Part shown: positions 5,614 to 26,258 of the stretch, piece by piece
Numbering within the stretch: position 1 is the stretch's first letter
Layout of the letters: each line of letters starts with the position of its first letter
Origin: Tagaea sp.
GTDB taxonomy: Bacteria > Pseudomonadota > Alphaproteobacteria > CACIAM-22H2
DNA: 64,000 bases
Reading direction: 5' to 3'
Assembly (NCBI GenBank): GCA_965228135.1
Contig: OZ245798.1
Coordinates: forward strand, 247,656-311,655
Made by a program: the position numbers and the translations under genes
Notes under the pieces: generated by a model
Databases searched by the model: none
Seen by the model: only the letters and a program-made list of their open reading frames with translations
Told to the model about the DNA's origin: nothing

Positions 5614-5651
5614 CAGCCGCGATGACGCGGCGGCGATCGGGGAGGAAGCGA

Positions 5652-6524
5652 ATGGCGCGCGAAACGAAGTTCGAGCGGTTCCAGGTCCGTCAGATGACCG
5701 GGACGATCGGTGCCGAGATCACGGGGCTCGACCTCGCCCGCGACCGCAGCCCGGAAACGATGGCCGACTTGAAGCGCGCGATCCATCGCTACCACGTGCT
5801 CGCGATCCGTGATCAGAAGATGGAACTCGAGGACGTGCATCAAGTGCGCGCGGCGCTGGGGCCGTTCAGCGGCAATCCGGTGCACGAGCCGATCGCCGGC
5901 TACGACGATTTGATGATCCTCAATCGCGAACCCGACGAAACCGGCAAGGTGATCGGCGAGGATTGGCATATGGATCTCGCCTGGCTCGCCAAGCCGCCGG
6001 GCATCACCATGCTTTACGGCCACGACGTGCCGCCCGTGGGCGGGGACACGTGCTTTACCAGCCTCGAATGGGCGTATCGTTCGCTGTCGCCCGCGATGAA
6101 GGCGATGATCGAGGATTTCGTCGTCGTCCATTCCGGCAAGGGCGTGCTGGGTCAGCAATACGGCAGCGTGAAGATGCGCGCCGATGTGCACAAGATCGCG
6201 AGCTTCGAGGTCGAGCATCCGCTGGTCTGCACGGACCCGGTAACGGGGGAACGCTATCTCTTCATCAGCTCGGTCATCGACCGCATCAAGGGCTTCACGC
6301 CGGCCGAGACGCGCCCGATCATCGATTATCTGTTCAAGGTCGCGACGCGGCCGGAATTCAATTGCCGTCTGCGCTGGGCGCCGGGCACGCTGGGCATGTG
6401 GCTCAACCCGTGCGTGATGCACACCGCGATCAACGATTATCCCGGCTATCGGCGCACGATGTATCGCTCGACCATCGAGGGCTGGACGCCGATCGCGGCG
6501 AGCGGCAAGCGCGAAGCGGCCTGA
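5652..6524 (+). CDS. TauD/TfdA family Fe(II)/2-oxoglutarate dioxygenase
   Basis: TIGAEITGLDL N-terminus, HxD motif (WHMD), distal His (VMHTA), C-terminal RTMYRST. GGAGG at 5641 supports the ATG at 5652. Confidence 0.9.
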   Translation: MARETKFERFQVRQMTGTIGAEITGLDLARDRSPETMADLKRAIHRYHVLAIRDQKMELEDVHQVRAALGPFSGNPVHEPIAGYDDLMILNREPDETGKVIGEDWHMDLAWLAKPPGITMLYGHDVPPVGGDTCFTSLEWAYRSLSPAMKAMIEDFVVVHSGKGVLGQQYGSVKMRADVHKIASFEVEHPLVCTDPVTGERYLFISSVIDRIKGFTPAETRPIIDYLFKVATRPEFNCRLRWAPGTLGMWLNPCVMHTAINDYPGYRRTMYRSTIEGWTPIAASGKREAA

Positions 6525-6538
6525 CGGATATCGGATCG

Positions 6539-7426
6539 ATGGGCTCGACGATCGCGAAACGGCAATTCGCCGCGGCTTTGCCGTGGATCACGCCGGCGCA
6601 CGGATTGCTTCTGACGGTGATCGTGATTCCGGCCATCTATGTGATTTGGCTCAGTATCACGAACTCGACCTTCGGCCGCGCGCCGAGCTTCGTGGGCCTC
6701 GTCAACTACGTGAAGGTATTGAACGACACGTATTTCTGGCGCGCCTTGTTCAACACGATCTTCATCGTCGCACTGGTCGTGCATCTGGAATTGCTGCTCG
6801 GCCTTGGCATGGCGCTTCTGTTCGCCTCGGGTTTGCCGTTCAGAGGGCTTCTTCTGGCGGCGGTGTTGGCGCCGTACGCGGTGTCGGAAGTCTCCGCCGC
6901 CGTCATTTGGCGCTATCTATTCGATCCCGATGTCGGACCGGTCAGCGTGGCGATGAAGGCGATCGGCCTGCCGATCCTGGAATGGTCGATCGAGCCGTCG
7001 CATGGCTTAGCGTTGATCTCGCTGCTGTCGATCTGGCTGCATCTGCCGTTCACCTTCCTGATCCTGTACGCCGCACGCCTGTCGATCCCGCGCGAGCTTT
7101 ACGAAGCCGCATTGATCGACCGCGCCACGCCGTTGCAGATGTTCCGCAAGGTGACGCTGCCGTTACTCGTACCCGCCCTCGTGGTCGCGGCGCTGTTCCG
7201 CTACATTTTCGTCTTTCGGATGTTCTCCGAAGTCTGGCTGATGACCCAGGGCGGCCCGGCACGCCAGACCGAGGTGCTCGCGGTCTATCTCTATCTCGAA
7301 GCCTTCCGCTTCAACGCTTTCGGCGAGGCGGCGGCGACCGGCTGGATCATGCTGGCGATCTCGCTCGTCCTCGGGGCGGGCTACCTGTTCGCGTTGCGCA
7401 AGGACATGACCTCCGATGCGCGCTAA
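6539..7426 (+). CDS. Carbohydrate ABC transporter permease (MalF-like)
   Basis: Hydrophobic TM segments and EAA loop (IPRELYEAALIDRA). Start set at ATG 6539 because the upstream part of ORF 5963-7426 shadows the TauD gene. Confidence 0.9.
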   Translation: MGSTIAKRQFAAALPWITPAHGLLLTVIVIPAIYVIWLSITNSTFGRAPSFVGLVNYVKVLNDTYFWRALFNTIFIVALVVHLELLLGLGMALLFASGLPFRGLLLAAVLAPYAVSEVSAAVIWRYLFDPDVGPVSVAMKAIGLPILEWSIEPSHGLALISLLSIWLHLPFTFLILYAARLSIPRELYEAALIDRATPLQMFRKVTLPLLVPALVVAALFRYIFVFRMFSEVWLMTQGGPARQTEVLAVYLYLEAFRFNAFGEAAATGWIMLAISLVLGAGYLFALRKDMTSDAR

Positions 7427-8249
7427 TCGCCTGGGCGTTGGGATCGGCAAGACCGCCGCCGTGGCGGTGATCCTGCTATGGTCGTTGTTCCCGATCGCCT
7501 TTATGGCGATGTCGTCGCTGAAGCCGGCGCGCGAGATTTTCGCGGTCCCGCCGACCTTCGCCTTCGTGCCGACGCTGGAGCATTACACGGCGCTGCTGGT
7601 CCGCTGGCCGGATTTCTTCCGCGGCCTGTGGAACAGCCTGATCGTCACCGTCGGTGCCACGCTGCTGACGGCGACCGTCGCGACGATGGCGGGTTACGCT
7701 TATTCGCGCTTCCGCTCGCCGATGCTGACGCGTTCGGCGTCGTTCCTGGTCGCGGTGCGTCTGCTGCCGCCGATCGTGCTGACGCTGCCGCTATTCCCGC
7801 TGATCAATTGGCTGGGCCTCAGCGACACGCATTTCACGCTGATCGTGCTTTACGCCACGTTCTTCGTGTCGCTGGGCACGCTGTTGATGCGCGCCTTCAT
7901 CGACAAGATTCCGGTCGAGCTCGACGAAGCCGCGTTGGTCGACGGGGCGGGGCGGGGCACGTTGATCGCGAAGATCATCGCCCCCCTGGCGCTGCCGGGC
8001 ATGCTGGCGCTATCGGTCTTCGTCATCGTGTTCGCGTGGAACGAATTCCTGTTCGCCTTCGTCTTCACCTCGACGCGCGCGAAGACGGCACCGCTGATCG
8101 TGTCGGAAATGCTCGGCTCGTTCGACGGGGTCGATTGGGGCGTGCTGTTCGCCGCCGCGACGATCCAGCTATTGCCGATCCTGATATTCGTTTGCGCCAT
8201 GCAACGCCATCTCGTGGCGGGGCTGACATCGGGCGCCACGAAAGGCTGA
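7416..8249 (+). CDS. Carbohydrate ABC transporter permease (MalG-like)
   Basis: EAA loop IPVELDEAALVDGA, FAWNEFLFA motif, overlaps the upstream permease. Confidence 0.9.
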   Translation: MRANRLGVGIGKTAAVAVILLWSLFPIAFMAMSSLKPAREIFAVPPTFAFVPTLEHYTALLVRWPDFFRGLWNSLIVTVGATLLTATVATMAGYAYSRFRSPMLTRSASFLVAVRLLPPIVLTLPLFPLINWLGLSDTHFTLIVLYATFFVSLGTLLMRAFIDKIPVELDEAALVDGAGRGTLIAKIIAPLALPGMLALSVFVIVFAWNEFLFAFVFTSTRAKTAPLIVSEMLGSFDGVDWGVLFAAATIQLLPILIFVCAMQRHLVAGLTSGATKG

Positions 8250-8283
8250 GACTTCAATAACAACCCCCGGGAGGAACCCAACG

Positions 8284-9576
8284 ATGACGATTTTCAAAAT
8301 GACGCGCCGTTCGGCTTTGGGCATGGGCGTGGGGGCTGCGGCTCTCGCGACGGGCATGGGGCGTGCGCGCGCCCAAGCCAAGACGCTCAACGTGCTCGCC
8401 CATCGCGTGCACCAGGTGAGCCTCACCCAAGGTCCCGCCGGCGATCTGACCAAGCCGTGGCGCGACGCCAATTCGACCGAGGTCAATTGGGCGACGTTCG
8501 ATTCCAATCCGTTGCAGGATCGCCTGTTCCGCGAAGCGAGCCTCAGCAGCACCGATTTCGGCGTCGGCTTCCTGGTCAATAGCCGTGCCACGCGCGACGC
8601 CGCCAAGCTGATGGCGCCGCTCGACGATTTGCAGCGCGCCAACCCGATCGAGGATTTCGCGGATATCGCGCCGGGCCTCGTCGAGGCGATGCGCTTCGAC
8701 GGCAAGCTCGTCTCCGTGCCGTTCCGCCATGCGACGATCGGCCTGTTCTACAACGAAGCGCTGCTCGAGGAGCGTGGCATCAAGGCGCCGCCGCAATCGC
8801 TGGAGGAACTCGTCGATCAGGCCAAGCGCCTCACCTTCACCTCGGCTTCGGGCACGCCCGTCACCGGTATGGTGCTGGCGAGCGATCTGTCGGTGTTCCC
8901 GGTGACCTTCGCGCGCGCTTTCGGCGGCGATTTCATCTCCGGCGATCTGAAGCTGGTGCCCGATCGCGGCGCGCTCGAAAAGGGCCTCGCCACGATGCAG
9001 GATCTGTTCAAGGCGGGTGCCTTGCCGCGCACTTTCGCCACCACGACGAACGACGATCAGGTGACGTGGATCCAACAGGGCCGCGCGGCCTTTACCGTGC
9101 TGCCCTTCGCGCGCTTCGCGCAGCTCAATAATCCGCAGCAATCGAAGTTCCCGGGCAAGATCAAGGCGATCGAATTCCCGATCTCCGAAGCGTTGCGCGG
9201 CAAGGTGCCCTTCGCCTCGGTCGTCGAGTTCTGGGCGATGAGCATTCTGGGCAACGCGCGGGACAAGGATCTCGCCTGGAACTTCATCCGCACGATGTCG
9301 TCGAAGGCGGTCACGATCGGGGCCGCGCGCAACGGCAACGGGCCGGTGCGCGTCTCGACCTACAAGGACCCCGGCTTCGCGGCCGATCAGCCCCTCGCGG
9401 CCGTGGAATCGAAGGCGCTGGCGGGGGCCCGCGTGCCGCTGCCGGCCTTCCCGGAAGCTGCGCGCGCGCAGACGATCTTCCTCGAGGAAGTTCAGCTCGC
9501 CGTGCTCGGCCGCAAGAACCCCAGCGAGGCGGTCGGGGCGATTATCGAACGCGTGAAGCCGCTGCTGCCGGCGTAA
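8284..9576 (+). CDS. Carbohydrate ABC substrate-binding protein, Tat-type signal
   Basis: TRRSALG twin-arginine signal ending AQA, SBP_bac_1-like LFYNEALL motif, GGAGG RBS. Confidence 0.85.
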   Translation: MTIFKMTRRSALGMGVGAAALATGMGRARAQAKTLNVLAHRVHQVSLTQGPAGDLTKPWRDANSTEVNWATFDSNPLQDRLFREASLSSTDFGVGFLVNSRATRDAAKLMAPLDDLQRANPIEDFADIAPGLVEAMRFDGKLVSVPFRHATIGLFYNEALLEERGIKAPPQSLEELVDQAKRLTFTSASGTPVTGMVLASDLSVFPVTFARAFGGDFISGDLKLVPDRGALEKGLATMQDLFKAGALPRTFATTTNDDQVTWIQQGRAAFTVLPFARFAQLNNPQQSKFPGKIKAIEFPISEALRGKVPFASVVEFWAMSILGNARDKDLAWNFIRTMSSKAVTIGAARNGNGPVRVSTYKDPGFAADQPLAAVESKALAGARVPLPAFPEAARAQTIFLEEVQLAVLGRKNPSEAVGAIIERVKPLLPA

Positions 9577-9585
9577 GCTTGCCGG

Positions 9586-11142
9586 ATGACGAAAGTTGAC
9601 CTGACGATCGGGGTGGATGTCGGCTCGACGAGCGCGCGGGCCGTCGTCTATTCGCGCGACGGAAAGGCGCTGGGCGGCGCGCAAACCGCCTTCGCCATCC
9701 GCCGCCCGGCACCGGATTTCGCGGAACACGATTCCGGCGAGATCTGGCGCGCGGTCGTGACATCGGTCAAAGCGGCGATGGCGGCGTCGGGGGCCAAACC
9801 CGGCGCCGTCGCCGCCATTGGCTTCGACGCGACATGCTCGCTCGCCATGTTCGACGCGGCGGGCGCGCCCGTGGGCGTGTCCGACGACGAAGATCGTTGG
9901 AACGTGATCATGTGGGCCGATCACCGCGCGATCGGTGAAGCGACGGAAATCACCGCCAAGCAGCATCGCGTGCTCGACTATGTCGGCGGCGTGATGTCGC
10001 CGGAGATGGAGACGCCGAAGCTCCTCTGGCTCAAGCGGAACTTGCCGGCGAAATGGCGGCGCTACGGCTTGGCGCTCGATCTCGCCGATTTCCTTGTCTG
10101 GCGCGCGACGGGCGAAGTGACCGGATCGGCCTGCACGCTGACCTGCAAATGGACCTATCTCAACCACGAGAACCCGGGCTGGCAGGCGGATTTCCTCGCC
10201 GCGATCGGCCTCGACGGCGCATGGGCGAAACTGCGCATCCCGGCGAAAGCAGCGCAGCTCGGCGATCGGGCGGGGCGTCTGTCGGCCGAAGCCGCCGCCG
10301 AGCTTGGCCTTGAACCCGGTATCGCCGTCGCGGTCGGCTTGATCGACGCGCATGCGGGCGGGCTGGGGCTATTGGCCGGAACGGCATCGGCGGAATTCGA
10401 TCGCGCGATCGCGCTGATCGCGGGCACGTCGAGCTGCCATATGGCGCTGTCGCCAAGCCCCCGCGCCATTCACGGCGTGTGGGGCCCGTATTTCGGCGCG
10501 ATGATGCCGGGGCTGTGGCTCAACGAAGGCGGGCAATCGGCGACCGGCGCGTTGCTCGACCATATTCTCGATTGGCATGCGGAAGGGCGCAAGCTCGGCT
10601 CCGATCGCCATGCGATCCTGGCGAAGCACATCGCGGCGCGGGCGCCGGATTACGCGGCCGATATGCTGGTCATACCGGATTTTCGCGGCAATCGCTCGCC
10701 GCTCGCGCGGCCCGAGTTGAAGGGGGCGATCTTCGGCCTCGAACTCGATTCATCGTTCGAAAGCTTGGCGCGGCTCTATCACGCGACGGCCGTGGGCATC
10801 GCCTATGGCACGCGCCATATCGTCGACGCGATGAACGCCAAGGGCTATGCGATCGATCGCTTGCATCTGACCGGCGGCCATTCGAAAGCGGATTACCTCA
10901 CCAAGCTTTACGCCGACGCGACCGGCTGCGACGTGATCCTGGCGGGCGAGCCCGATGCGGTGACGCTGGGCTCGGCCATCGCGGCGGCGTCGGCCGCGAA
11001 GCTCTATCCCGATCTTGCGGCGGCCGGGGCGGCGATGTGCCGGGAAGGGGCGCGCGTGCGGCCCGACGCGAAAGCCCGCACCATTCACGACAAGGGCTAT
11101 CGCCGCTTCCGCGCGGCGTTGGACGCGCGCGACAGGATCTAA
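9586..11142 (+). CDS. FGGY-family pentulose (ribulo)kinase
   Basis: GVDVGSTSARA, IGFDATCSL, IMWADHRA, MSPEMETPKLLW, NEGGQSATG, GNRSP motifs. Confidence 0.88.
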   Translation: MTKVDLTIGVDVGSTSARAVVYSRDGKALGGAQTAFAIRRPAPDFAEHDSGEIWRAVVTSVKAAMAASGAKPGAVAAIGFDATCSLAMFDAAGAPVGVSDDEDRWNVIMWADHRAIGEATEITAKQHRVLDYVGGVMSPEMETPKLLWLKRNLPAKWRRYGLALDLADFLVWRATGEVTGSACTLTCKWTYLNHENPGWQADFLAAIGLDGAWAKLRIPAKAAQLGDRAGRLSAEAAAELGLEPGIAVAVGLIDAHAGGLGLLAGTASAEFDRAIALIAGTSSCHMALSPSPRAIHGVWGPYFGAMMPGLWLNEGGQSATGALLDHILDWHAEGRKLGSDRHAILAKHIAARAPDYAADMLVIPDFRGNRSPLARPELKGAIFGLELDSSFESLARLYHATAVGIAYGTRHIVDAMNAKGYAIDRLHLTGGHSKADYLTKLYADATGCDVILAGEPDAVTLGSAIAAASAAKLYPDLAAAGAAMCREGARVRPDAKARTIHDKGYRRFRAALDARDRI

Positions 11143-11858
11143 GCGCGGGTCTTGGCCGTTTTCGGCGACAGCGCGGCCGTCAGATCGACGCGCTGGGGCG
11201 CTTCCTCGACGAAATGATGCGCGTGCATGTTGGTCTGCAGATGCGCCTTCATCAGCGCGATGCATTCCTTGGCCTTGCCGGCCGCAAGCAGATCGACCAT
11301 GCGCGTATGCTCGTCCACGACGCAGGCATGGCCGTCGGGCAGATACAGCGTGGTGATGATCGCCGCGCGCGCGACCAAGCCTTCCAGCAATTCCGCCAGC
11401 ATGCGGTTGCCGCCCAGCCGCGCGATCTGCAAATGGAAATCGCCCGAGAGATGGACGAATTCGCGCTTGTCGCGACGCTTGCGCGCGGCGGCCTGTAATT
11501 CGATATGCGCGCGCAGGGCGCGGATATCGTTGGCGGTGCAGTTCTTGGCGACGTCCTCGATGATCGCGGCTTCGATGACCCGGCGCGCGGCGTAAATATC
11601 GTCGGCGTCCTTCACCGTCGGCCGCGCCACGAAGGCGCCGCGCTGGGGCAGGATTTCGGCGATGCCGCGGAAGGAAAGCTCCTTCAGCGCGTCGCGCACG
11701 ATGGTGCGGCTGACTTCGAAGATGCGCGCCAGCTCGTCTTCGCCCAGCTTCGCGCCGGGCGGCAAGCGCCCGTCGCAGATCGCGTCCCACACCGCGGCGA
11801 CGATCGCTTCGCGGCGGTTTTCGCCGCTTCCGACACCCGGCATGTTGACGACGGCCAT
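11139..11858 (-). CDS. GntR family (FCD-type) transcriptional regulator
   Basis: wHTH LPPGAKLGEDELARIFEVSRTIVRDAL, FCD domain with FHLQIA...GN...EH. Start position uncertain. Confidence 0.9.
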   Translation of the reverse strand: MAVVNMPGVGSGENRREAIVAAVWDAICDGRLPPGAKLGEDELARIFEVSRTIVRDALKELSFRGIAEILPQRGAFVARPTVKDADDIYAARRVIEAAIIEDVAKNCTANDIRALRAHIELQAAARKRRDKREFVHLSGDFHLQIARLGGNRMLAELLEGLVARAAIITTLYLPDGHACVVDEHTRMVDLLAAGKAKECIALMKAHLQTNMHAHHFVEEAPQRVDLTAALSPKTAKTRA

Positions 11859-11946
11859 AGCGACTCTAAAGCTCCCCGAATTCGATACGCGTTATTGCCC
11901 CCGGGGGCTGGGCCCGTCAAGGCGCAGCAATGCCGCAGGCCGTCGT

Positions 11947-11974
11947 TGCACACAAATATTGCAATATGTATACA
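11947..11974. promoter_or_regulatory. Overlapping NtrC-like box and GntR-like palindromes
   Basis: TGCAC-N7-TTGCA (11947-11963; one mismatch to TGCAC-N7-GTGCA), ATATTGCAATAT (11956-11967) and TGTATACA (11967-11974). Confidence 0.55.
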
Positions 11975-12021: not shown

Positions 12022-12037
12022 TGGCATGGAACCTGCT
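12022..12037 (+). promoter_or_regulatory. Putative sigma54 (-24/-12) promoter
   Basis: TGGCATGGAACCTGCT, with GG (12023-24) and GC (12035-36) at canonical spacing, just upstream of the AtzD-family gene. Confidence 0.55.
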
Positions 12038-12049
12038 GATCGGACCGCC

Positions 12050-13102
12050 ATGAGTGCTTGCCACGTCTACCGTTTTCCGATGCGCGACCCCGACGATATG
12101 TCCGGTCTTGCCGGTTTGTTGGCCCAAGGGAAGATTGCCGCTTCCGACATCAAGGCGGTGTTCTGCAAGACCGAGGGCAACGGCCTCAACAACGACTGGA
12201 CACGGCTTTTCGTCGATCGCGCCGTGCGCATGACGATCGCGGCGGGGGGCGAGGCGGAAGCGGAGGCGTTGCGCCGTGCGATACTGGTCCTGATCTCGGG
12301 CGGCAGCGAGGGCGTCGTCTCGCCGCATATGCTGGTCTTCGCGGCGGCACCGCCCACGGGAACCGAACCGGGCTTGGCGCTGGGTATGGATATACGCGAT
12401 CTCGCCCCCGGCGATCTGGCGCGCAAATCACATGCGTCGATAACGGCCGACATGGTCCGCGCCGCGATGAAGGCGGCGGGTGCCGAGGATCCGTCGCAAG
12501 TCGGCTTCGTGATCGTGCGCGCGCCGTCCGATCCGACCAAGGGTGCCACGTCGCCGCGCGTGCGGGCCGCCGTGTCGCTGGGCGTGGCGCAAGCGCTGGG
12601 CGAGGTCGCCGGCGAAATCGACGAAGCCGCGTTCCTCAAGGATTTCTCGAAATTTTGCGGCCGCGTTTTCGTCGTCGCACGCGACGATACGACGACCCAG
12701 CAGGTGATCGTACTGGCGAACGCACCCGGCGGCACGAAGGGTTTGCGCGTCGCCGCGGGCACGCTGCGCGATCCGCTGGATTCGCCCGGTGTGGCCGCCG
12801 TTCTTGCCAAGCTTGGCATCGACGCGATGCCGCAGGCGTCGCCGGAAGCGAGCGCGCGGATCGTCGCCTCGCTGTCCAAGGGCGACCCGCCGGGCGACGG
12901 AAAAATCCGGGGCGCGCGCCACACGATGAACGGCGACGGCGATATCCATTCGCATCGCCACGGCCGTTCGGCCTATGGCGCGATGATCGCCTCGGTGATC
13001 GGCCATTCCTATTGCTTCGTCTCGGGCGGGGCGGAACATCACGGCCCCGACAATGGCGGCTTGATCGCGTTGATCGCGCGCGACGAAGGATTCTCGGTAT
13101 GA
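12050..13102 (+). CDS. Ring-opening amidohydrolase, cyanuric acid hydrolase/barbiturase (AtzD, Toblerone-fold) family, divergent
   Basis: KTEGNGLNNDWTR, SGGSEGVVSPH, RHTMNGDGDIHSHRHGR and C-terminal VSGGAEHHGPDNGG closely parallel AtzD motifs. Start could alternatively be 12026. Confidence 0.88.
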   Translation: MSACHVYRFPMRDPDDMSGLAGLLAQGKIAASDIKAVFCKTEGNGLNNDWTRLFVDRAVRMTIAAGGEAEAEALRRAILVLISGGSEGVVSPHMLVFAAAPPTGTEPGLALGMDIRDLAPGDLARKSHASITADMVRAAMKAAGAEDPSQVGFVIVRAPSDPTKGATSPRVRAAVSLGVAQALGEVAGEIDEAAFLKDFSKFCGRVFVVARDDTTTQQVIVLANAPGGTKGLRVAAGTLRDPLDSPGVAAVLAKLGIDAMPQASPEASARIVASLSKGDPPGDGKIRGARHTMNGDGDIHSHRHGRSAYGAMIASVIGHSYCFVSGGAEHHGPDNGGLIALIARDEGFSV

Positions 13103-14466
13103 CGACGACATTCCCCGAGGTGTGCGACCTCATCGTCGCGGGCGCCGTCATCGTGACCGGCGAGGACAAGGCGATCGGCGACGGCGCGGTCGCGGTGACG
13201 GGTACGCGCATCGTCGCGGTCGGCGAGACGAAGGCGATCGATGCCGCCTATACGGCGGCGCGCCGGATCGATGCGAGGGGCAAAATCCTGATGCCCGGCC
13301 TCGTCAATGTACACAATCATACGCCGCTGACGATCGTGCGCGGCATGGTCGAAGATCTCGGCTTCGCGCCCGCTTACACGCCGGGCATTCCGCAAGGCCA
13401 TTGGCTGTCGGACGAGGAAACCTATCTGTTCGCGCGGCTGGGGGCGTGGGAATTGCTGCGCATGGGCACGACCACGGCCGTCGATTACTACCGCAAACCC
13501 CAAGCCTGTGCGGCGGCGCTGGCGGAGACGGGCTTGCGCGGCTTCGTCGGCGGGCGCATTCACGACGCGGACACCGCCGCTTTGGCCGAAGGCGCTTGGA
13601 AGCATGACCGCAAGCTGGGCGAGGCCACGCTCGCCGAAAGCCAGGACATGATCGCCGCCTGGGACGGCAAGGCGGACGGCCGCATTCGCTGCTTCCATGC
13701 GCCGCATGCGCCCGATACGTGTTCGCGCGATCTGCTGCGCATCGTCGCCGATCTCGCCGCGAAGGACGGGCGCCAGGTGCATACGCATCTGGCGCAGTCA
13801 CCGATGGAGGTCGAGCGCGTCACCGCGCGCGAAGGCAAGGGGCCCGCGCAGTTGTTCGACGAAGTCGGTTTGCTGAACGGCGATCTGGTCGCCGCGCATT
13901 GCATCTTCCTGACGGACGACGATATCGCAATGGTCGGCAAAGCCGGCATTCGCGTGGCGCATGCGCCCGTGGGCAATGTGTCGGCGGGCATGATCGCGCC
14001 GATCGTAGCGCTCGAAAATGCCGGGGCAACGATCGCCATCTGCACCGACACCAAAACCGGCGACATGTTCGAATCGATGCGCACCGCCTTGGCCGTCGCG
14101 CGGGTGCGTGGGGCGGGTTACGCCTGCGATGCGCGCACGGTGTTCGGCTGGGCGACGCAAGGCGGGGCGAAGGCGCTGGCGATGGACGGCGAGATCGGCG
14201 TCTTGAAACCCGGCGCCAAAGCCGATTTCATTCTGCTGGATGCGGCCGCGCCGAATCTCCGCCCGATCGTCGACGGAATCGGTATCGTCGTGCATAGCGG
14301 CATCGGGCCGAACGTGTCGATATCGGTGATCGACGGCAAAGTGGTTATGGAAAACGGCAGACCGACTTTGCTCGACGCCGACGACGTGATCGCGGCGGCA
14401 CAGAAAGCCGCCGATCGTTTATGGGCGCGCGCGGGCCGGCCCGGCGTGATGATGGAGGCGGTTTGA
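13099..14466 (+). CDS. Metal-dependent amidohydrolase (MTA/SAH deaminase, AtzA/TrzN-like superfamily)
   Basis: MPGLVNVHNHT (HxH), HTHLAQS, AAHCI, CTDT. ATGA overlap with the upstream gene. Confidence 0.88.
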   Translation: MTTTFPEVCDLIVAGAVIVTGEDKAIGDGAVAVTGTRIVAVGETKAIDAAYTAARRIDARGKILMPGLVNVHNHTPLTIVRGMVEDLGFAPAYTPGIPQGHWLSDEETYLFARLGAWELLRMGTTTAVDYYRKPQACAAALAETGLRGFVGGRIHDADTAALAEGAWKHDRKLGEATLAESQDMIAAWDGKADGRIRCFHAPHAPDTCSRDLLRIVADLAAKDGRQVHTHLAQSPMEVERVTAREGKGPAQLFDEVGLLNGDLVAAHCIFLTDDDIAMVGKAGIRVAHAPVGNVSAGMIAPIVALENAGATIAICTDTKTGDMFESMRTALAVARVRGAGYACDARTVFGWATQGGAKALAMDGEIGVLKPGAKADFILLDAAAPNLRPIVDGIGIVVHSGIGPNVSISVIDGKVVMENGRPTLLDADDVIAAAQKAADRLWARAGRPGVMMEAV

Positions 14467-14468
14467 AC

Positions 14469-15362
14469 ATGACTCGCGATCTTCGCGGCTACGGTCCCAA
14501 TCCGCCTTTCGCCGACTGGCCGGGCAAGGCTCGCGTCGCCGTCACCTTCGTCGTGAATTTCGAGGAAGGGGCGGAGCTTTCCATCGCCGACGGCGACGAG
14601 CGCAACGAGAAGGTCTACGAGGTCGCCGACGAAGTGGTCGGCCGGCCCGATCCGTGCCTCGAATCCCATTTCGATTACGGCACGCGCGTCGCCTATTGGC
14701 GCATCGCCGAATTGTTCGATCGCTATGGCGTGAAGTTCACGCTGTCGTCTTGCGGGCGCGCCATCGAACGCTCGCCCGAAATCGCGATCGACGCGGCCAA
14801 GCGCGGTCACGAGATCGCCTGCCATGGCTGGCGCTGGGAAACCCATGCGACCATGCCGATCGAGCGCGAGCGCGAGGCGATCGCCAAGACGATCGCCGTG
14901 ATCGAGCGCACGACCGGTACGCGCCCCGTGGGCTGGCATACGCGCTCCGCGCCGTCGTCCAACACGCGCCAATTGTTGATCGAGGCGGGCGGATTCCTTT
15001 ACGACAGCGACGCCTATGGGGATGATCTGCCGTATTTCTTGGAAGTCGCGGGCAAGCGCCATCTGGTGATGCCTTATGCGTTCGACACGAACGATATGCA
15101 TTTCCATCAAGGTTTTCAGCGTTTCGCGCTCGGCTCGGATTTCTCGACCTACACGATCGACGCCTTCGACTGGCTGCACGACGAAGGTGCGAAGACCCCC
15201 CGCATCCTGCCGATCGGCCTGCATCTGCGCATGGTCGGAAGACCGGGGCGCATGGCGGGGCTGAAGCGCATCCTTGACCACGTCACGCGGCCCGAAGCGA
15301 AAGCCTGGTGCGCGACGCGCGCCGATGTGGCGCGGCATTGGATCGCGAAATTCGGCCGATGA
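14469..15362 (+). CDS. PuuE-like allantoinase / polysaccharide deacetylase (CE4) family hydrolase
   Basis: RDLRGYGPNPP..WPGKARVAVTFVVNFEEG, HEIACHGWRW, YDSDAYGDDLPY, LHLRMVGRPGR. Confidence 0.85.
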   Translation: MTRDLRGYGPNPPFADWPGKARVAVTFVVNFEEGAELSIADGDERNEKVYEVADEVVGRPDPCLESHFDYGTRVAYWRIAELFDRYGVKFTLSSCGRAIERSPEIAIDAAKRGHEIACHGWRWETHATMPIEREREAIAKTIAVIERTTGTRPVGWHTRSAPSSNTRQLLIEAGGFLYDSDAYGDDLPYFLEVAGKRHLVMPYAFDTNDMHFHQGFQRFALGSDFSTYTIDAFDWLHDEGAKTPRILPIGLHLRMVGRPGRMAGLKRILDHVTRPEAKAWCATRADVARHWIAKFGR

Positions 15363-16450
15363 CCGCCGCACTCGCCATCGCGCCGATCGGGCATCTCGAT
15401 ATTCGCGGCGTGTCGAAAGCCTATGGCGAAACTACGGTGCTCGATCGCCTCGACCTTGCCGTAGATCGCGGCGAGTTCGTGTCGCTGCTCGGCCCCTCCG
15501 GCTGCGGCAAGACGACGTTGCTGCGCTTGATCGCCGGATTGCAGAACGCCGATAGCGGTACGATTTCGGTCGATGGGCGCGAGATAACGCCGCTGCCCGC
15601 GCATAAACGGAATATCGGCGTCGTGTTCCAGAACTACGCGCTGTTTCCGCATCTGACGGTCGCGGAGAACGTCGCCTTCGGTCTCGACGCCAAGGGTGTG
15701 TCGAAAGCCGAAAGTGCGGAGATCGTGAAACGCACCCTAGAACTCGTGAAGCTCGCCGAAATGGCGCCGCGCACGATCTTCGCGCTGTCGGGCGGGCAGC
15801 AACAGCGCGTCGCCGTGGCGCGCGCATTGGCGATCCGGCCGAGCCTGCTGCTGCTGGACGAACCGTTCTCGGCGCTCGATCGCAAGCTGCGTGAATCGAT
15901 GCAGATCGATCTGCGCCGCTTGTTGCGCGAACTGGGTATCACCGCCGTGTTCGTGACGCATGATCAGGAAGAGGCGATGGTGATGTCCGATCGCATCGCC
16001 GTGATGAACCGCGGCGCCATCGAACAGCTTGCGCCGCCCAAGGCGATCTATGATCGCCCGGCGACGGCGTTCGCGTTGGAATTCCTCGGCGGTTCCACGC
16101 GGCTTCACGCGACGGTCGCCGCCGTCGATGGCGATTATGTGACGCTGGCGACGCCGCTGGGCCCCGTCATCGGCAAGGGGCATTTCCTGCGCGGTGTGGA
16201 CGTGCTCGCCGGGATTCGGCCGGAGAAGATCGCCGTCAATCGCCAGGCCGCCGCCGGGCGCAACGTCCTGCCCGCGCGCGTGATCGATCGCGTGTTCTTG
16301 GGCTCGAAGCTGATGGTGATATTCGAGGCGGGCGAGGGCGGCCAAGGTGTCGCCGAACTCAACGCCGCCGATATGCCCGATCTGCCGGCGGACGGGATCG
16401 TCGAATTTTCGTGGGCGATCGACGATACGCTGGTGTTTCCGCGCGCGTAA
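15359..16450 (+). CDS. ABC transporter ATP-binding protein (PotA-like)
   Basis: Walker A GPSGCGKT, LSGGQQQRVA, LLLDEP, VTHDQEEA, C-terminal TOBE-like region. Confidence 0.92.
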   Translation: MTAALAIAPIGHLDIRGVSKAYGETTVLDRLDLAVDRGEFVSLLGPSGCGKTTLLRLIAGLQNADSGTISVDGREITPLPAHKRNIGVVFQNYALFPHLTVAENVAFGLDAKGVSKAESAEIVKRTLELVKLAEMAPRTIFALSGGQQQRVAVARALAIRPSLLLLDEPFSALDRKLRESMQIDLRRLLRELGITAVFVTHDQEEAMVMSDRIAVMNRGAIEQLAPPKAIYDRPATAFALEFLGGSTRLHATVAAVDGDYVTLATPLGPVIGKGHFLRGVDVLAGIRPEKIAVNRQAAAGRNVLPARVIDRVFLGSKLMVIFEAGEGGQGVAELNAADMPDLPADGIVEFSWAIDDTLVFPRA

Positions 16451-17267: not shown

Positions 17268-18005
17268 TCAGGGAATCTCGAACAAGCGCCCCCAGCCTTG
17301 CACGCGCGATGGCTTCTCGCCGATCAGGCGCAATCCGGTCCAAACGGCGGTCGCGACCGTATCGAAAATCGGAATGCCGAGTTCGCGTTCGAGTTCGGCC
17401 GCGACCTTGCCGCCGCGCATATTGGTGCACAGGATGACGATCGCATCGGGCTTGGCGGCGGCGACGTCGCGGATCATGCGCGCGATCGTCGCTTCGTCGA
17501 TCTCGGCGAAGGCGTAGTTCACGCTTTCGCCCAGATGACGTTCGGCGGCGCAGGTTAGGCCTTCGCGCTCGAAATTCGCGACGATCCGGTCTTGTACGTC
17601 GTCGAGATAGGGCGAGACGAGTCCGTAGCGCTTAACGGCAAAGGTGCGGAACAATTCCATCAGCGCCAGGACCGAGGTGCCGGCTTTCGTGCCGGTGCGT
17701 TCTTCGATCCGCCGGCAAAGCTGGCGATCGGCTTCGAGACCCAGCCAGCTCGACGACGTCCCGTTCCACACGATGGCACCGGCGCGCGCATCGGCCAGCA
17801 ATTCGGCGGCGGCCAATATCGGCGCGTCGTCGAATTGCGCCAGCGCCTTTTCACCCAGCGAGATTTCCGTCACGCGGAAGCGGCCGAAATGGGCGGTCAC
17901 GTCGGGCAGGCCCGCCAGCATCGCGGCGGTGACGGGCTCGAGCACCGTGTTGGAGGACGGCGTGAGCATGCCGATATGCTTGTGCGGCGGCGGAACGGGG
18001 GGCAT
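17268..18005 (-). CDS. Asp/Glu racemase / maleate isomerase / arylmalonate decarboxylase-fold protein (single Cys)
   Basis: GMLTPSSNTVLEP, IVWNGTSSSW, VSPY, ILCTNM. Confidence 0.85.
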   Translation of the reverse strand: MPPVPPPHKHIGMLTPSSNTVLEPVTAAMLAGLPDVTAHFGRFRVTEISLGEKALAQFDDAPILAAAELLADARAGAIVWNGTSSSWLGLEADRQLCRRIEERTGTKAGTSVLALMELFRTFAVKRYGLVSPYLDDVQDRIVANFEREGLTCAAERHLGESVNYAFAEIDEATIARMIRDVAAAKPDAIVILCTNMRGGKVAAELERELGIPIFDTVATAVWTGLRLIGEKPSRVQGWGRLFEIP

Positions 18006-18039
18006 GGAATCGTCGTTCTATGTTAAAAGAGCGGCGACC

Positions 18040-19545
18040 ATGACCCACGATTTGCTGATCCGCAACGCCCGAATCGCGTCGCCCACGCGGCCGCGTTCGC
18101 TCGCCCCCGCCGACATCCTGATCCGCAACGGTAAGATCGCGGCGATCGGCAAAGTCACCGATCCGCCTGCCGGGGTGGAAGTGGTGATGGCCGAGGGCAA
18201 GCTGGCGCTGCCGGGGCTGATCAACGCGCATGTGCATTCGCCGGGCAATTTGATGCGCGGCTGTCTCGATTCCTATCCGCTCGAAGTTTTCATGCTCTAC
18301 GAGGTGCCGCCGCTGGCCGACGGCGCCACGGCCGGTCGGCTCGCCTATTTGCGCACGGCCTTGGGTGCCATCGAGATGCTGAAACTCGGCATCACAACGG
18401 TGCTCGACGACGCGTTTTTCGTGCCCACCGTACAGCCCGACGCGATCGACGCGGTGATGACCGCCTATCGCGATTCCGGCATGCGGGCGACGGTCGCGCT
18501 CGATCAGCCGAATATCGTCGAATACGAGAAGCAACCGTTTCTGGCCGAGTTGATCGACGACGCGACGCGCAAAGCGATGGATGCCGCCCCGCGCCAATCG
18601 GCCGACGAATTGATGGCGTGTTACGCGCATCTCGTCGGCAAATGGCATGGTGCGGCGCGCGGCCGTTTGGGGGCGGCCGTGTCGTGCTCGGCGCCGCATC
18701 GCGTGACGAAGGATTATTTCGCGCGATTGTCGGCGCTGTCGCGCGAACGCGACTTGCCGTTCTTCGTGCATATTCTGGAGACCAAAACGCAGCGCGTGTT
18801 CGGCGAAGAAAAGCTCGGCAAGTCGCTGGTCAAATATGTCGATGATCTCGGGTTCTTGGACGAGCGGATGCTCGTCATCCATGCGATCTGGATCGACGAT
18901 TCGGATATCGCCGTGCTGGCGAAATCGGGCTGCACCGTGGCGCATAACCCGATCTGCAATCTGCGCCTGGGCAGCGGCATCATGCCGTGGCGGCGTTTGC
19001 GCAATGCGGGCGTGCCCATCGCCATCGGTACGGACGAAGCGACGGTCGACGACACGCATAATCTGTGGCTGGCGGCCAAGGCGGCCGGCCTCGTCCACAA
19101 CATCGCGCGCGAGGATTGGCGCGAATGGCCGTCCGCGCCGGAAGTGCTTGATGCGCTGTTCGATGGCGGGGCGCGCGCCGCGCGGCGGCCTAAAAAGCTC
19201 GGCAAGCTGGAAGTCGGGGCGGCGGGCGACGTGATCTTGGTCGATCTCGAAACGCCGGCCTTCGTGCCGCTCAACGATATCGAACGCCAGCTCGTGTTTT
19301 GCGAAACCGGTTCGTCGGTGCGCGATGTGATCGTCGACGGCGAACTCGTCGTGCATAACGGCCGTTTGCTGACGCTCGACGAGAAGGCGATCTATGCCGA
19401 GATCGCCGAACTCACGCCCAAACTCGCGGCCGATATGGCGGCCTTGCGCGTGGAGGCGGCCAAGCTCGAACCCGCCTATCGCCAAATGTATCAGCGCGCG
19501 ATGGCGCGCGACGTCGGCCTTCAGCGGCGCGGCGGGCAAGGTTAG
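18040..19545 (+). CDS. Metal-dependent amidohydrolase (deaminase/chlorohydrolase-like)
   Basis: LPGLINAHVHSP, HILET, IHAIW, HNPICNLRLGSG, GTDE. Confidence 0.88.
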   Translation: MTHDLLIRNARIASPTRPRSLAPADILIRNGKIAAIGKVTDPPAGVEVVMAEGKLALPGLINAHVHSPGNLMRGCLDSYPLEVFMLYEVPPLADGATAGRLAYLRTALGAIEMLKLGITTVLDDAFFVPTVQPDAIDAVMTAYRDSGMRATVALDQPNIVEYEKQPFLAELIDDATRKAMDAAPRQSADELMACYAHLVGKWHGAARGRLGAAVSCSAPHRVTKDYFARLSALSRERDLPFFVHILETKTQRVFGEEKLGKSLVKYVDDLGFLDERMLVIHAIWIDDSDIAVLAKSGCTVAHNPICNLRLGSGIMPWRRLRNAGVPIAIGTDEATVDDTHNLWLAAKAAGLVHNIAREDWREWPSAPEVLDALFDGGARAARRPKKLGKLEVGAAGDVILVDLETPAFVPLNDIERQLVFCETGSSVRDVIVDGELVVHNGRLLTLDEKAIYAEIAELTPKLAADMAALRVEAAKLEPAYRQMYQRAMARDVGLQRRGGQG

Positions 19546-20285
19546 AGCTTGAAGACGCTGCCCCACGCGGCGGCGGCAGGCGACGGATCGACGCCGATCA
19601 TTTTGAGCGCCTTCCAAATCACGATCGATGTCGCGTCGTGGAAGGGGATGCCCGTCTCGGCCTCGATCTCCGCCGCCACGATCGCGGCGGGATAATTCGT
19701 GCACCAGCCGATCAGCACGTCGGGCTTTGCCTTGGCGGCGTCGCGCGCCTGCTCGCGGATCGTGTCGAGCGGCACGAAGGCGTAGCTGAGATTGTCGGTG
19801 AGGCGCAGATTGGAGCGCGACACGGTCTCGAAGCCCAAAGCGGCGAAATTGGCTTCGACCTTCGCCTGATAGGGATCGAGATAGGGGGTGACGAAGCCGA
19901 TGCGCTTGGCGCCCAGCGCGTTCAGCGCATCGATCTGTGCGAACAGCGATGTCGTCGCCGGGCAACCAGCCGTTTGGGATAGGCGCTGGACGAGCTCTTC
20001 CTCGACCTTATGGCCGACCGAGCCGCCCTTGCTGCCGTTCCACACGATCACGCCGGGCTTGGCGTGGCCGAGCAATTCGGCGGCGCGCGTCATCGATTGC
20101 CAATCGTAACTGCCGGGGAAGGGATCGCTGGTGCCGAACACCGGCGTGCGCGAATGCAGCGGCACGACGGCCGGGAAATGCGAGAGCACGCCGGCGGTCA
20201 CGCGTTCGACGACGTTGTTGCCCGACGGTGTCACCACCGCCAGATACTTGTTCTGGGCGAGAAAGCGTTCGGTCGGCGTGGGCAT
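19542..20285 (-). CDS. Asp/Glu racemase / maleate isomerase / arylmalonate decarboxylase-fold protein (single Cys), second copy
   Basis: VVTPSGNNVVE, IVWNGSKGG, VTPY, GWCTNY. TGATG overlap with the upstream permease. Confidence 0.85.
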   Translation of the reverse strand: MPTPTERFLAQNKYLAVVTPSGNNVVERVTAGVLSHFPAVVPLHSRTPVFGTSDPFPGSYDWQSMTRAAELLGHAKPGVIVWNGSKGGSVGHKVEEELVQRLSQTAGCPATTSLFAQIDALNALGAKRIGFVTPYLDPYQAKVEANFAALGFETVSRSNLRLTDNLSYAFVPLDTIREQARDAAKAKPDVLIGWCTNYPAAIVAAEIEAETGIPFHDATSIVIWKALKMIGVDPSPAAAAWGSVFKL

Positions 20286-21085
20286 CACATCTCCGCGATT
20301 TTGCGCAAGCCGACCATACGTTCGCACAGCAGCAGCAGCAACAGCACCAAGCCGATCAACAGGCTGGAAATGGCCGCGATCGTCGGATCGGGTTGTTCTT
20401 CGACCAGATTCAGCATCTGGATCGGCAGGGTCTTCGTCCACGCATTGGTGAAGAAGATCGACACCGCGTAATTGTCCATCGACGCCAGGAACGCGAAGAT
20501 TCCCGACGTGAGGAAGGCGGGGGCGAGATTGGGAATCAGCACGCGCGTCACGGCCTGCGGGGCCGAGCAGCCCAGCGTGCGCGCCGCGTCGATCAGCGAG
20601 AAGTCGAACAGCGTCAGCGCCGAATAAAGCGTGCGCGCGATATAGGGAATGGTGATGACCACATGGGCGAGGGCGAGGCTCAGCCACACGTCGCGAAGCC
20701 CCGCGAAGCGGAAGGCTTGCAGAAAGGCGATGCCGAGCACGAGGCCCGGCAGCATCAAGGGCGAGGTGAGGAACGCCGCGATCGCTTCGCGCCCCGCGAA
20801 GCGGCCGCGCGCCAGTGCCGTCGCCGCCATACCGCCGATCAACATCGACACCAGCGTGGCGACCGCCGCGATTTGCACCGAGACGAGCAGCGAGCTCGAC
20901 AATCCGCGCACATTCATCAGGCGCTGATACCAGCGCATCGACCAGCCGGGCGGCGGCAAAGTGAACAGATTGCTCGACCCGAAGGACACGACGACGGCGA
21001 CGACCAGCGGGGTCAGCAGGAAGATCACCGTCGCGACGGCGATGACCCAGACCGCGACATTGGCGCTACGTTCGGTCAGGGTCAT
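20285..21085 (-). CDS. ABC transporter permease (PotC-like)
   Basis: TM-rich, DFSLIDAARTLG loop, FLASMDNY. Confidence 0.9.
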   Translation of the reverse strand: MTLTERSANVAVWVIAVATVIFLLTPLVVAVVVSFGSSNLFTLPPPGWSMRWYQRLMNVRGLSSSLLVSVQIAAVATLVSMLIGGMAATALARGRFAGREAIAAFLTSPLMLPGLVLGIAFLQAFRFAGLRDVWLSLALAHVVITIPYIARTLYSALTLFDFSLIDAARTLGCSAPQAVTRVLIPNLAPAFLTSGIFAFLASMDNYAVSIFFTNAWTKTLPIQMLNLVEEQPDPTIAAISSLLIGLVLLLLLLCERMVGLRKIAEM

Positions 21086-21918
21086 CGCGAATCTCCCTTG
21101 CCGCGCGACAGCAGCGCGCTGCACGCGACGATGGCGACGGCGAGGAACAGCAGGACCGTCGCGGTCGTAGCGCCCAAAGCTTCGTTGCGCATCAGCAGGA
21201 ACGCGCGGCCCGTGAGTGTGGCGAGCGTTTGGAAGCGGTCGCCGATCAACAGGCTGGGGATCACATACATCGACGTGGCGAGCGAGAACACGATCGACAC
21301 GCCGCCGACGATACCGGGCATGGCGAGCGGCAGTGCGACGTTGAAGAAGCGGAACACGGGCGGGGCGCCGAGCGTCGCCGCCGCGTCCTGCAAATTCGGA
21401 TCGGCGAGTTTCAGCACCGAATAGATCGGCAGGATCATGAAAGGCAGGAACACGTTCGCCGCGCCCATGACGAGGCCGTGTTCGGTGAACAGCAGCAGCT
21501 TGGGTTCGTCCCACACGCCGGTCGCGACGAGCAGGGCCGCGACGATCCCGTCGCGACGCAGCACGATCTGCCAGGCGAAGGTCTTGACGACCACGCCGAC
21601 CGACAGCGGCAGGATGATCGCGATCAGCATCGCGACTTGCACCGCACCTTTCGAGCGCGCCAGGGCGAGCGCCGTCGGATAGCCGAGAACGAGGCAAACG
21701 ACGGTCGTCCAGAACGCGACGCGCAGCGTGTTGCCGATGACGACCCAGTTGAACGGCTCGGACAGGAAGGTCGTATAGTTCGACAGCGTGAACCCGTCCG
21801 CCCCCATGAAGCCGCGCGCGACCAGCACGATCACGGGGATCGCGAACACGATCACCATGTAGATCGCCGCCGGTAGGGCCAACAGCAACACCGGATCGAA
21901 GCGGAGCCTCGTCGTCAT
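21082..21918 (-). CDS. ABC transporter permease (PotB-like)
   Basis: TM-rich, DPNLQDAAATLGA loop, ATGA overlaps with neighbours. Confidence 0.9.
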   Translation of the reverse strand: MTTRLRFDPVLLLALPAAIYMVIVFAIPVIVLVARGFMGADGFTLSNYTTFLSEPFNWVVIGNTLRVAFWTTVVCLVLGYPTALALARSKGAVQVAMLIAIILPLSVGVVVKTFAWQIVLRRDGIVAALLVATGVWDEPKLLLFTEHGLVMGAANVFLPFMILPIYSVLKLADPNLQDAAATLGAPPVFRFFNVALPLAMPGIVGGVSIVFSLATSMYVIPSLLIGDRFQTLATLTGRAFLLMRNEALGATTATVLLFLAVAIVACSALLSRGKGDSR

Positions 21919-23003: not shown

Positions 23004-23029
23004 CGTATGCTTCTTCGCCGTGGGTGCGA

Positions 23030-24073: not shown

Positions 24074-24152
24074 GAAGCTCTCCTGGTTTGGATGGGCGCC
24101 CGTGGGCGGGCGGCTCGGGATGGGGAAATTCGTGCTGATGTCGGGAGAGTTC

Positions 24153-24168
24153 AGCAATGCCCGTGCCA
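24153..24168 (-). promoter_or_regulatory. sigma54 (-24/-12) promoter for the ABC/racemase operon
   Basis: Minus strand reads TGGCACGGGCATTGCT, an exact match to TGGCACG-N4-TTGCW. Predicted +1 is near 24142, about 70 nt upstream of ATG 24073. Confidence 0.8.
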
Positions 24169-26198: not shown

Positions 26199-26214
26199 AC
26201 AAGCGTTAAGGAGA

Positions 26215-26239
26215 GGGGCGGCCCGGTCCAGGCCGCCCC
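26215..26239. other. Intercistronic stem-loop between dctP and dctQ
   Basis: GGGGCGGCC-CGGTCCA-GGCCGCCCC, a 9-bp perfect stem. Confidence 0.6.
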
Positions 26240-26258
26240 GATTCCTTCGAGGATAATC

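Follow-up and report, generated by a model that had tools for sequence, protein, structure and literature searches.

A Toblerone-fold ring-opening amidohydrolase of Tagaea sp. without the Ser-Lys pair of its second repeat, and the conserved clade to which it belongs

What does an amidohydrolase of the AtzD family do once it has lost the Ser-Lys pair that part of the literature holds to be the catalytic one? This question is raised by a gene at positions 12050-13102 (+ strand) of a 64,000-nucleotide stretch of Tagaea sp. DNA (contig OZ245798.1; hereafter, the window), which encodes a Toblerone-fold ring-opening amidohydrolase (P0001; hereafter, the hydrolase) of a group that we call the VAR clade. 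In this protein, the Lys, Arg and Ser residues of repeats A and C are intact, and repeat B keeps its arginine only. We consider it somewhat better than an even bet that the hydrolase actively opens the ring of an asymmetric cyclic ureide other than cyanuric acid, with Ser83-Lys40 as nucleophile and a repeat B rebuilt for recognition, working in a nitrogen-scavenging operon.

Published mechanisms of cyanuric acid hydrolases (CAHs) are indeed split between the serines of repeats A and B, as the original prediction on this locus had stated. AtzD has three Ser-Lys pairs, of which Ser85-Lys42 (repeat A) was favored as nucleophile; K162A/R, S233A and the other pair mutants were inactive, and all nine residues were conserved in 68 homologues (Peat et al., 2013; PMC3758960). 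In the Azorhizobium enzyme, S226A was the most damaging substitution, with activity on cyanuric acid down about 10^9-fold, and K156A lowered it about 10^4-fold; the repeat-B pair was proposed as nucleophile, its absolute conservation being part of the argument (Cho et al., 2014). For the Moorella enzyme, a repeat-B nucleophile was deduced from attack geometry, Ser347 having the least favorable one, and the "strict conservation of Ser231-Lys161" was cited again (Shi et al., 2019). Carboxylates are bound at both the A and B sites of the Moorella enzyme. The VAR clade lacks exactly the disputed repeat-B pair, together with its glutamate.

The open reading frame encodes 350 amino acids, from an ATG at 12050 to a stop codon at 13100-13102, and this start is considered the right one because the N-terminal strand, which can be aligned with solved enzymes, starts as early as residue 3. 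The G+C content at third codon positions is 0.80, and codon usage is like that of the adjoining genes. The protein matches the PF09663 (Amido_AtzD_TrzD) profile over all of its 358 positions, with 271.1 bits (cut-off 25; E 1.9e-80), and passes the TIGR02714 model for ring-opening amidohydrolases (227.5 against 153.1); one PF09663 gene is present within the 64-kb window. By phmmer, the nearest solved proteins were the Moorella CAH (E 1e-52), the Azorhizobium CAH, TrzD, AtzD and barbiturase, the Frankia protein 5hy0 being the weakest match (125 bits), and sequence identity to solved CAHs was 31-36%. Moreover, an AlphaFold2 model built from 25 sequences (predicted local distance difference test, 87.3; predicted template modeling score, 0.90) has the three concatenated YjgF-like repeats of the Toblerone fold, and Foldseek matched it to 4bvq, 6bum, 6dhj, 5t13, 4nq3, 5hwe and 5hy0 with probability 1.00 and template modeling scores (TM-scores) of 0.83-0.90.

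The register of the active-site residues was taken from phmmer alignments to AtzD (4bvq), the Moorella (6bum) and Azorhizobium (4nq3) enzymes and TrzD (5t13), from two MAFFT alignments, and from hhalign of the clade profile against a canonical profile; it was identical across the four alignment methods. The intact sets that the original prediction had read by eye in repeats A and C appeared in each of them. In repeat A (12167-12298, +), Lys40 (12167-12169, motif KTEGNG), Arg52 (12203-12205, DWTR) and Ser83 (12296-12298, SGG) align with AtzD K42, R54 and S85; in repeat C (12878-13036, +), Lys277 (SKGD), Arg306 (RHGR) and Ser325-Gly326-Gly327 (SGGAEH) align with K296, R325 and S344. On the repeat-C side, Asp279 stands for the AtzD metal ligand Glu298, His302 for AtzD Thr321, and Glu329 is AtzD Glu348. 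The AtzD metal site consists of the Glu298 side chain and backbone carbonyls of the SGGAEHQGPxGG loop (PMC3758960); in the hydrolase this metal loop (SGGAEHHGPDNGG) is conserved, and the position of the sole side-chain ligand is occupied by Asp279, invariant in the clade.

Repeat B is different. Its arginine is kept as Arg172 (12563-12565, +), which is invariant in alignments A1, A2 and A3 and lies in a segment reading RAAVSLG against RGASALG in AtzD; the AtzD counterpart is Arg195 in Peat et al. (2013), rather than the 194 of the original prediction. Arg157 (12518-12520, +) replaces the repeat-B lysine (AtzD Lys162, Azorhizobium Lys156), the AtzD strand FVQVKCP having become FVIVRAP, and a rebuilt strand, F207-V-V209-A210-R211-D-D213 (12668-12688, +), stands in place of S-x-S-A-G-x-E, with SASAG reading VVVAR and S233, A234 and G235 of AtzD corresponding to V209, A210 (kept) and R211. 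The AlphaFold2 model predicts strands at residues 151-159 and 206-211. Both replacements were given by phmmer, MAFFT and hhalign; no alignment restores a Ser or Lys, as the original prediction had read, and no clade-conserved Ser, Thr or Lys was found near the repeat-B positions in the sequences of the alignments searched. The predicted deletion also stood, with its size corrected from about 20 to about 17 residues by gaps against AtzD and Moorella: it shortens the loop from strand 2 to the Arg helix (12524-12562, +), and the gaps are likewise seen against the Azorhizobium enzyme and TrzD. Changes beyond those first noticed are G235 to R211, the replacement by Asp213 of the glutamate that pairs with the repeat-B lysine (E230 in the Azorhizobium enzyme), and the loss, with the deleted loop, of the equivalents of Tyr188 and Met191, which in AtzD were named, with Thr321, as walls of the substrate channel (Peat et al., 2013).

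Is this a single aberrant gene or a lineage? A search of 5.8 billion proteins showed a step in similarity, with six clusters at 75-96% identity to the hydrolase, nine at about 49% (all 337-351 amino acids long), and the rest longer proteins that did not exceed 43%; when 1.84 billion representatives were scanned in full with HMMER, four further diverged full-length members were added (P0122, P0123, P0124 and P0130). The clade of 20 is monophyletic, with a Shimodaira-Hasegawa-like support of 100 (FastTree, 111 sequences) and members down to 42% identity. Close relatives come from Tagaea metagenome-assembled genomes (MAGs), sludge and algal-culture samples, and the 49% sub-clade from metagenomes of peat and soil, one of its sources being a Candidatus Sulfotelmatobacter MAG. 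The loop deletion is common to all 20 members, as is V-[A/S]-R where the serine would be, and 19 of them (95%) have Arg for the repeat-B lysine. Lys is kept in P0122 and its Telmatospirillum relative (locus L011), which suggests that the serine strand changed first, before the lysine.

No variation was seen in the clade at F207, V209, R211 and D213, nor at K40, S83, R172, K277 and R306, and R52 is nearly invariant. The comparison set comprised the 149 surveyed sequences with all three pairs, among which the clade states at F207, V209, R211, D213 and R157 were rare or absent (about 3% at most) and the repeat-B lysine position was Lys in 149 of 149. Residues specific to the clade occupy 21 positions, and six of these lie on the repeat-B strand, which has gone from S-x-S-x-G-x-E-x3-N-E to F-x-V-x-R-x-D-x3-Q-Q; H302 is a clade-specific change as well. 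Furthermore, the ratio of nonsynonymous to synonymous substitution rates (dN/dS) of the hydrolase gene was 0.14-0.23 (Nei-Gojobori, five pairwise comparisons with related loci), and the gene is under clear purifying selection.

In the family tree, the VAR clade and its sister clade (support 94) lie in a half without any characterized enzyme; the other half holds AtzD, TrzD, the Moorella and Azorhizobium enzymes, and the barbiturase proxy P0155 (93% identical). The sister clade, made up of metagenomic sequences, has Thr at the repeat-B serine position and Gly in place of the repeat-C serine, its patterns being K-R-T-A-G/A and V/L-R-T-A-G; members with the second pattern have neither the repeat-B lysine nor the repeat-C serine. 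Within the VAR clade, P0123 also has Gly for the repeat-C serine. The pair of repeat A alone is shared by all members of both clades and thus by this half of the tree.

This departure is not confined to the neighborhood of the hydrolase. Among 203 full-length sequences, a sample biased towards query-like sequences, all three pairs were intact in 148/203, A and C only in 35/203, A only in 12/203, B only in 4/203, A and B only in 2/203, and C only in 2/203, and none of the Ser-Lys pairs is shared by the whole Toblerone-fold family. On the CAH/barbiturase side, one small clade (P0198, P0207, P0244 and P0261) keeps only the repeat-B pair, and a further clade among P0125-P0262 departs from the three-pair rule with the pattern K-R-F-S-G. 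Within the literature available to our search, no paper on a clade without the repeat-B pair was found.

In this context, the argument that the repeat-B pair alone is absolutely conserved, and hence the nucleophile, does not hold family-wide, and a clade that is conserved and under selection without the pair removes it from the reasoning of Cho et al. (2014) and Shi et al. (2019). The VAR clade does not settle the nucleophile in true CAHs: it cannot by itself name their catalytic serine, because its own substrate probably differs. The claim that this natural variant tests which serine is catalytic was therefore overstated, and only the conservation argument falls. Nevertheless, a two-pair enzyme made by nature is available in this clade, and its remaining serines are testable one by one.

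How might such an enzyme work? We infer that the hydrolase is active and would open a cyclic amide through an acyl-enzyme, with Ser83 as the nucleophile, activated by Lys40; this pair is preferred because that of repeat A is the only one kept by every clade and sister-clade member. The ring would be oriented by Ser325, Lys277 and Arg306 of repeat C and by Arg52. Repeat B would no longer do chemistry, and its vacated corner would serve recognition: a cationic pocket beside a widened channel would be formed by Arg157, which probably makes a salt bridge to Asp213, together with Arg172 and the new Arg211. The Lys-to-Arg and Glu-to-Asp changes come paired, which suggests a preserved salt bridge and not a general base. 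Arg211 is the pseudo-symmetric counterpart of AtzD Gly346, a position treated as a specificity determinant (Peat et al., 2013). The pocket would hold the symmetry-breaking part of the substrate, perhaps a larger substituent, or else a position that is anionic, hydroxylated or carboxylated. With three arginines at one corner and a channel wall lost, an asymmetric position that is bulkier or anionic would fit.

The substrate would most likely be an oxidized pyrimidine, triazine or hydantoin-type ureide, not cyanuric acid. From the oxygenase and ureide-enzyme neighbors described below, candidates would be hydroxylated or carboxylated barbiturate-, uracil- or triazine-dione-type rings; dialurate may serve as an example, and its ring-opened product could, speculatively, lead to ureidoglycolate. 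The hydrolase would handle its substrate with a Glu-to-Gln amidohydrolase and, by lineage, with a PuuE-like hydrolase, 2-oxoglutarate oxygenases or ureidoglycolate lyase, in a nitrogen-scavenging operon that would run from an oxidized nitrogen heterocycle to ureides under a GntR/FCD repressor and a sigma-54-type promoter. An ordinary CAH is unlikely, and the asymmetric, non-cyanurate substrate that the original prediction had proposed would fit the remodeled site and the gene context. More tentatively, and with clearly less confidence than in the reading above, the pair losses may mean that the nucleophile has moved between pseudo-symmetric corners in evolution, the corner left behind being taken over for substrate recognition; if so, the VAR clade would represent a new activity on an anionic or hydroxylated cyclic ureide (dialurate, alloxan-derived, oxonate- or orotate-like), in an undescribed oxygenase-dependent pathway for nitrogen heterocycles with the Glu-to-Gln TRZ/ATZ variant.

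Several observations weigh against an active Ser83-Lys40 enzyme with one asymmetric substrate. Geometry and mutagenesis of the Moorella and Azorhizobium enzymes favor the repeat-B serine as nucleophile; if this is so family-wide, the VAR clade must have moved the nucleophile or lost activity. The enzymes encoded beside the hydrolase differ between sub-clades, so one shared substrate is not assured. Neighboring genes show dN/dS of 0.02-0.13, so the ratio of the hydrolase is about 1.5-6 times higher, and the hydrolase is the fastest-evolving gene of the operon (86-90% identity to its counterparts, against 91-98% for its neighbors in those loci). AlphaFold2 confidence is low at loops 44-48 and 294-298, which adjoin the active site. 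Finally, the bias of the pair survey towards query-like sequences bears on its counts.

Among the alternatives, the one that survives best leaves activity in place and assigns the nucleophile to Ser325-Lys277 of repeat C instead of Ser83-Lys40. The repeat-C set is intact, with K277 and R306 invariant in the clade, and it borders the rebuilt B corner, where the clade-specific H302 is close by. However, with Gly at the repeat-C serine in P0123 and throughout the sister clade, repeat A being intact in all of them, and with Ser347 of the Moorella enzyme having the poorest attack geometry, we regard this assignment as doubtful, although it deserves more credit than the explanations that follow.

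Could the hydrolase still be a cyanuric (or barbituric) acid hydrolase, working with two pairs, perhaps slowly, at the first step of triazine or pyrimidine breakdown? Its best PDB matches are CAHs (35% identity, TM-scores reaching 0.90), R172, R306, G326 and G327 agree with AtzD at four of its five signature positions, and the public annotation of its relatives is "cyanuric acid amidohydrolase". However, the protein scores 275.5 bits against a cut-off of 360 for the NCBIfam equivalog NF052395 (cyanuric acid hydrolase, EC 3.5.2.15), and substitutions at the same repeat-B positions abolish AtzD activity (K162R, S233A) or lower that of the Azorhizobium enzyme by the factors given above for S226A and K156A. 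Channel residues are deleted or changed, the clade stands on the opposite side of the tree from all characterized CAHs and the barbiturase proxy, and the annotated genes of window positions 1-30 kb showed no homologue of the biuret and allophanate hydrolases that would follow the conversion of cyanuric acid to carboxybiuret. An ordinary CAH is thus unlikely, because the AtzD K162R and S233A mutants are inactive and the equivalog cut-off is missed, and the label carried by these relatives is probably wrong.

No more credible is a pseudoenzyme that has lost catalysis and acts as a ligand-binding or scaffold subunit, for instance by presenting a ring compound to the translationally coupled amidohydrolase. 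The pair held catalytic by two groups is gone, the gene is coupled to that amidohydrolase and always lies beside it, and its dN/dS is above that of its neighbors. Against this, sequences down to 42% identity retain, unchanged or almost so, two full sets of Ser, Lys and Arg together with the residues of the metal loop and the glycine-rich oxyanion motifs, which is hard to reconcile with lost catalysis, and the partner itself is without its usual catalytic Glu and so is no obvious sole catalyst. A pseudogene or relaxed selection, a possibility that had been raised for this locus, is rejected on the dN/dS of 0.14-0.23 and the clade-wide invariance of the changed residues.

The partner gene (13099-14466, +) encodes a metal amidohydrolase of the TRZ/ATZ or COG0402 type with 455 amino acids, as identified by Pfam, NCBIfam and PDB alignments; the hydrolase stop codon overlaps its ATG by 4 nt (ATGA), and the two genes are translationally coupled. 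The protein resembles methylthioadenosine/S-adenosylhomocysteine deaminase and 8-oxoguanine deaminase (E about 1e-43) and has the metal ligands, but the catalytic Glu of its HxxE motif is replaced by Gln233 (13795-13797), the sequence being HTHLAQ against HxHxxE in the PDB alignments. All partner orthologues encoded next to a VAR-clade hydrolase share this Gln, at identities as low as 44%. The partner is probably not a standard deaminase, judging from this residue, and a plain deaminase was set aside as its function since the catalytic Glu is Gln in every orthologue. The gene adjoins the hydrolase in loci L001, L003, L006-L009 and L013-L017 and in L002, L004, L010, L012, L018 and L023, and so in both main sub-clades.

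Downstream lies a gene for a PuuE-like (allantoinase-type) hydrolase of the polysaccharide-deacetylase fold (14469-15362, +), recognized by TIGR03212, the match to PuuE 3cl6 and synteny. Its ATG is at 14469, 2 nt past the amidohydrolase stop codon, and not at 14421 or 14466. The protein matches PuuE 3cl6 with E 8e-82 and is about 50% identical to the Pseudomonas allantoinase PuuE; it may not be a true allantoinase, because its TIGR03212 score of 321 bits is below the PuuE equivalog cut-off (424.6). As a universal partner of the hydrolase, this gene was rejected, being present only in the Tagaea-like sub-clade. A PotA-like ATP-binding cassette (ABC) ATPase gene follows with a 4-nt overlap (15359-16450, +; synteny). 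Loci L008, L009, L015 and L017 carry about 1.2 kb of extra DNA between the PuuE-like and ATPase genes (about 13310-14570 in L008) that is not in the window, and L013 has no ATPase gene at the position after the PuuE-like gene.

Other lineages have other neighbors. In the soil sub-clade, a DIOX_N/2OG-Fe(II) oxygenase gene is directly downstream in 5/5 loci with enough flank (L002, L004, L005, L018 and L021). The Telmatospirillum MAG locus (L011, 8898-14702) carries the most basal clade member, in which the repeat-B Lys is kept and V-V-A-R is already there; this locus has two 2-oxoglutarate oxygenases, a TauD-family oxygenase, a cytidine-type deaminase, a ureidoglycolate lyase and two further amidohydrolases. 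Its hydrolase gene sits between those for the cytidine-type deaminase and ureidoglycolate lyase and those for a 2-oxoglutarate oxygenase and an amidohydrolase, with TauD-family and DIOX_N oxygenase genes upstream. In the window, the TauD, sugar-ABC and FGGY pentulose kinase genes at 5622-11142 were rejected as part of the core, since neither the surroundings of the L003 regulator nor the distant sub-clade has them.

On the other side of the hydrolase is a divergent GntR/FCD regulator gene (11139-11858, -; Pfam), kept with the hydrolase in both main sub-clades; its identity is 92-99% among close loci and falls to 49-52% for the distant sub-clade (L004, L005, L019 and L023). The intergenic region contains a sigma-54-type -24/-12 element, TGGCAT-N5-CTGCT (12022-12037, +), 13 nt upstream of the start codon, which would act as a promoter, and a palindrome-rich block, TTGCACACAAATATTGCAATATGTATACA (11946-11974, no strand assigned). 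Both are conserved in seven related loci, including L003 (75% protein identity), and the block is nearly invariant across the seven aligned intergenic regions. On this sequence evidence, the block is likely the operator for the divergent regulator.

A second nitrogen-compound cluster was observed further along the window, at 17268-24157. It holds two genes of the Amdase/Asp-Glu-racemase family (17268-18005, - strand, and 19542-20288, - strand), a 513-amino-acid amidohydrolase with a canonical HILET motif (18004-19545), 5 kb from the partner amidohydrolase, and a PotA/PotD-type ABC importer. Past this cluster lie a second GntR/FCD regulator gene (24457-25149), a tripartite ATP-independent periplasmic (TRAP) transporter (25173-28141), and a second PuuE-like gene (28146-29021), whose product is 28% identical to the first and has no Pfam match.

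In brief, ring-opener, Glu-to-Gln amidohydrolase and oxygenases or ureide enzymes may together form a module for the breakdown of nitrogen heterocycles, carried by Tagaea-like Alphaproteobacteria of aquatic habitats and by bacteria of peat and soil.

Compared with the CAHs AtzD (4BVQ), TrzD (5T13), Moorella (6BUM) and Azorhizobium (4NQ3), the hydrolase shares the Pfam family, the Toblerone fold, the Ser-Lys-Arg sets of repeats A and C, the SGG oxyanion motifs, the repeat-B Arg and the SGGAEHxGP loop. It differs from them in the repeat-B replacements (K to R, S to V, G to R and E to D), the 17-residue loop deletion, Thr321 to His, Glu298 to Asp, its operon partners, and its half of the tree. 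The AtzD signature (Arg195, Thr321, Arg325, Gly345 and Gly346) reads R172, H302, R306, G326 and G327 in the hydrolase, a 4/5 match short of the full signature, and the repeat-B Ser-Lys pair, which mutagenesis showed to be needed for activity on cyanuric acid, is missing.

Barbiturase (Bar) of Rhodococcus erythropolis (5HWE, EC 3.5.2.1, class VI) shares the fold (TM-score 0.86-0.88) and shows how a broken three-fold symmetry can go with a substrate that is itself asymmetric; it has His at the AtzD-321 position, as in the hydrolase. However, Bar keeps all three pairs and breaks the symmetry through Asn195, Lys325, Val345 and Ser346, whereas the hydrolase loses one pair. From the barbiturase signature (Asn195, His321, Lys325, Val345 and Ser/Ala346), only His321 matches, the other positions being Arg, Arg, Gly and Gly, and the barbiturase proxy P0155 is far from the hydrolase in the tree.

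Classes IV and V of Peat et al. (2013) are uncharacterized, carry neither AtzD nor Bar signatures, and are reported to keep the repeat-B Ser-Lys pair, unlike the VAR hydrolase. Class IV has Arg at 346, the counterpart of Arg211 in the hydrolase, and Lys at 235. Class V, for which our statements rest on Peat et al. (2013) and PDB titles, includes Frankia 5HY0 and Azorhizobium AZC_3203, the latter inactive on cyanuric and barbituric acid. This class has no Arg195 equivalent and is variable at 321, 325 and 345, whereas Arg172 is present and invariant in the VAR clade. In the PDB, 5HY0 bears the title "orotic acid hydrolase", although its molecule is named "ring-opening amidohydrolase"; such a title hints at earlier thought being given to carboxylated pyrimidines in this family. 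The paper on 5HY0 reportedly identified no substrate. The nearest relative of the VAR clade is its sister clade, which is also off the canonical repeat-B pair and has an intact repeat A, but differs in having a hydroxyl residue, Thr, at the serine position, in keeping Gly235, and in showing no loop deletion.

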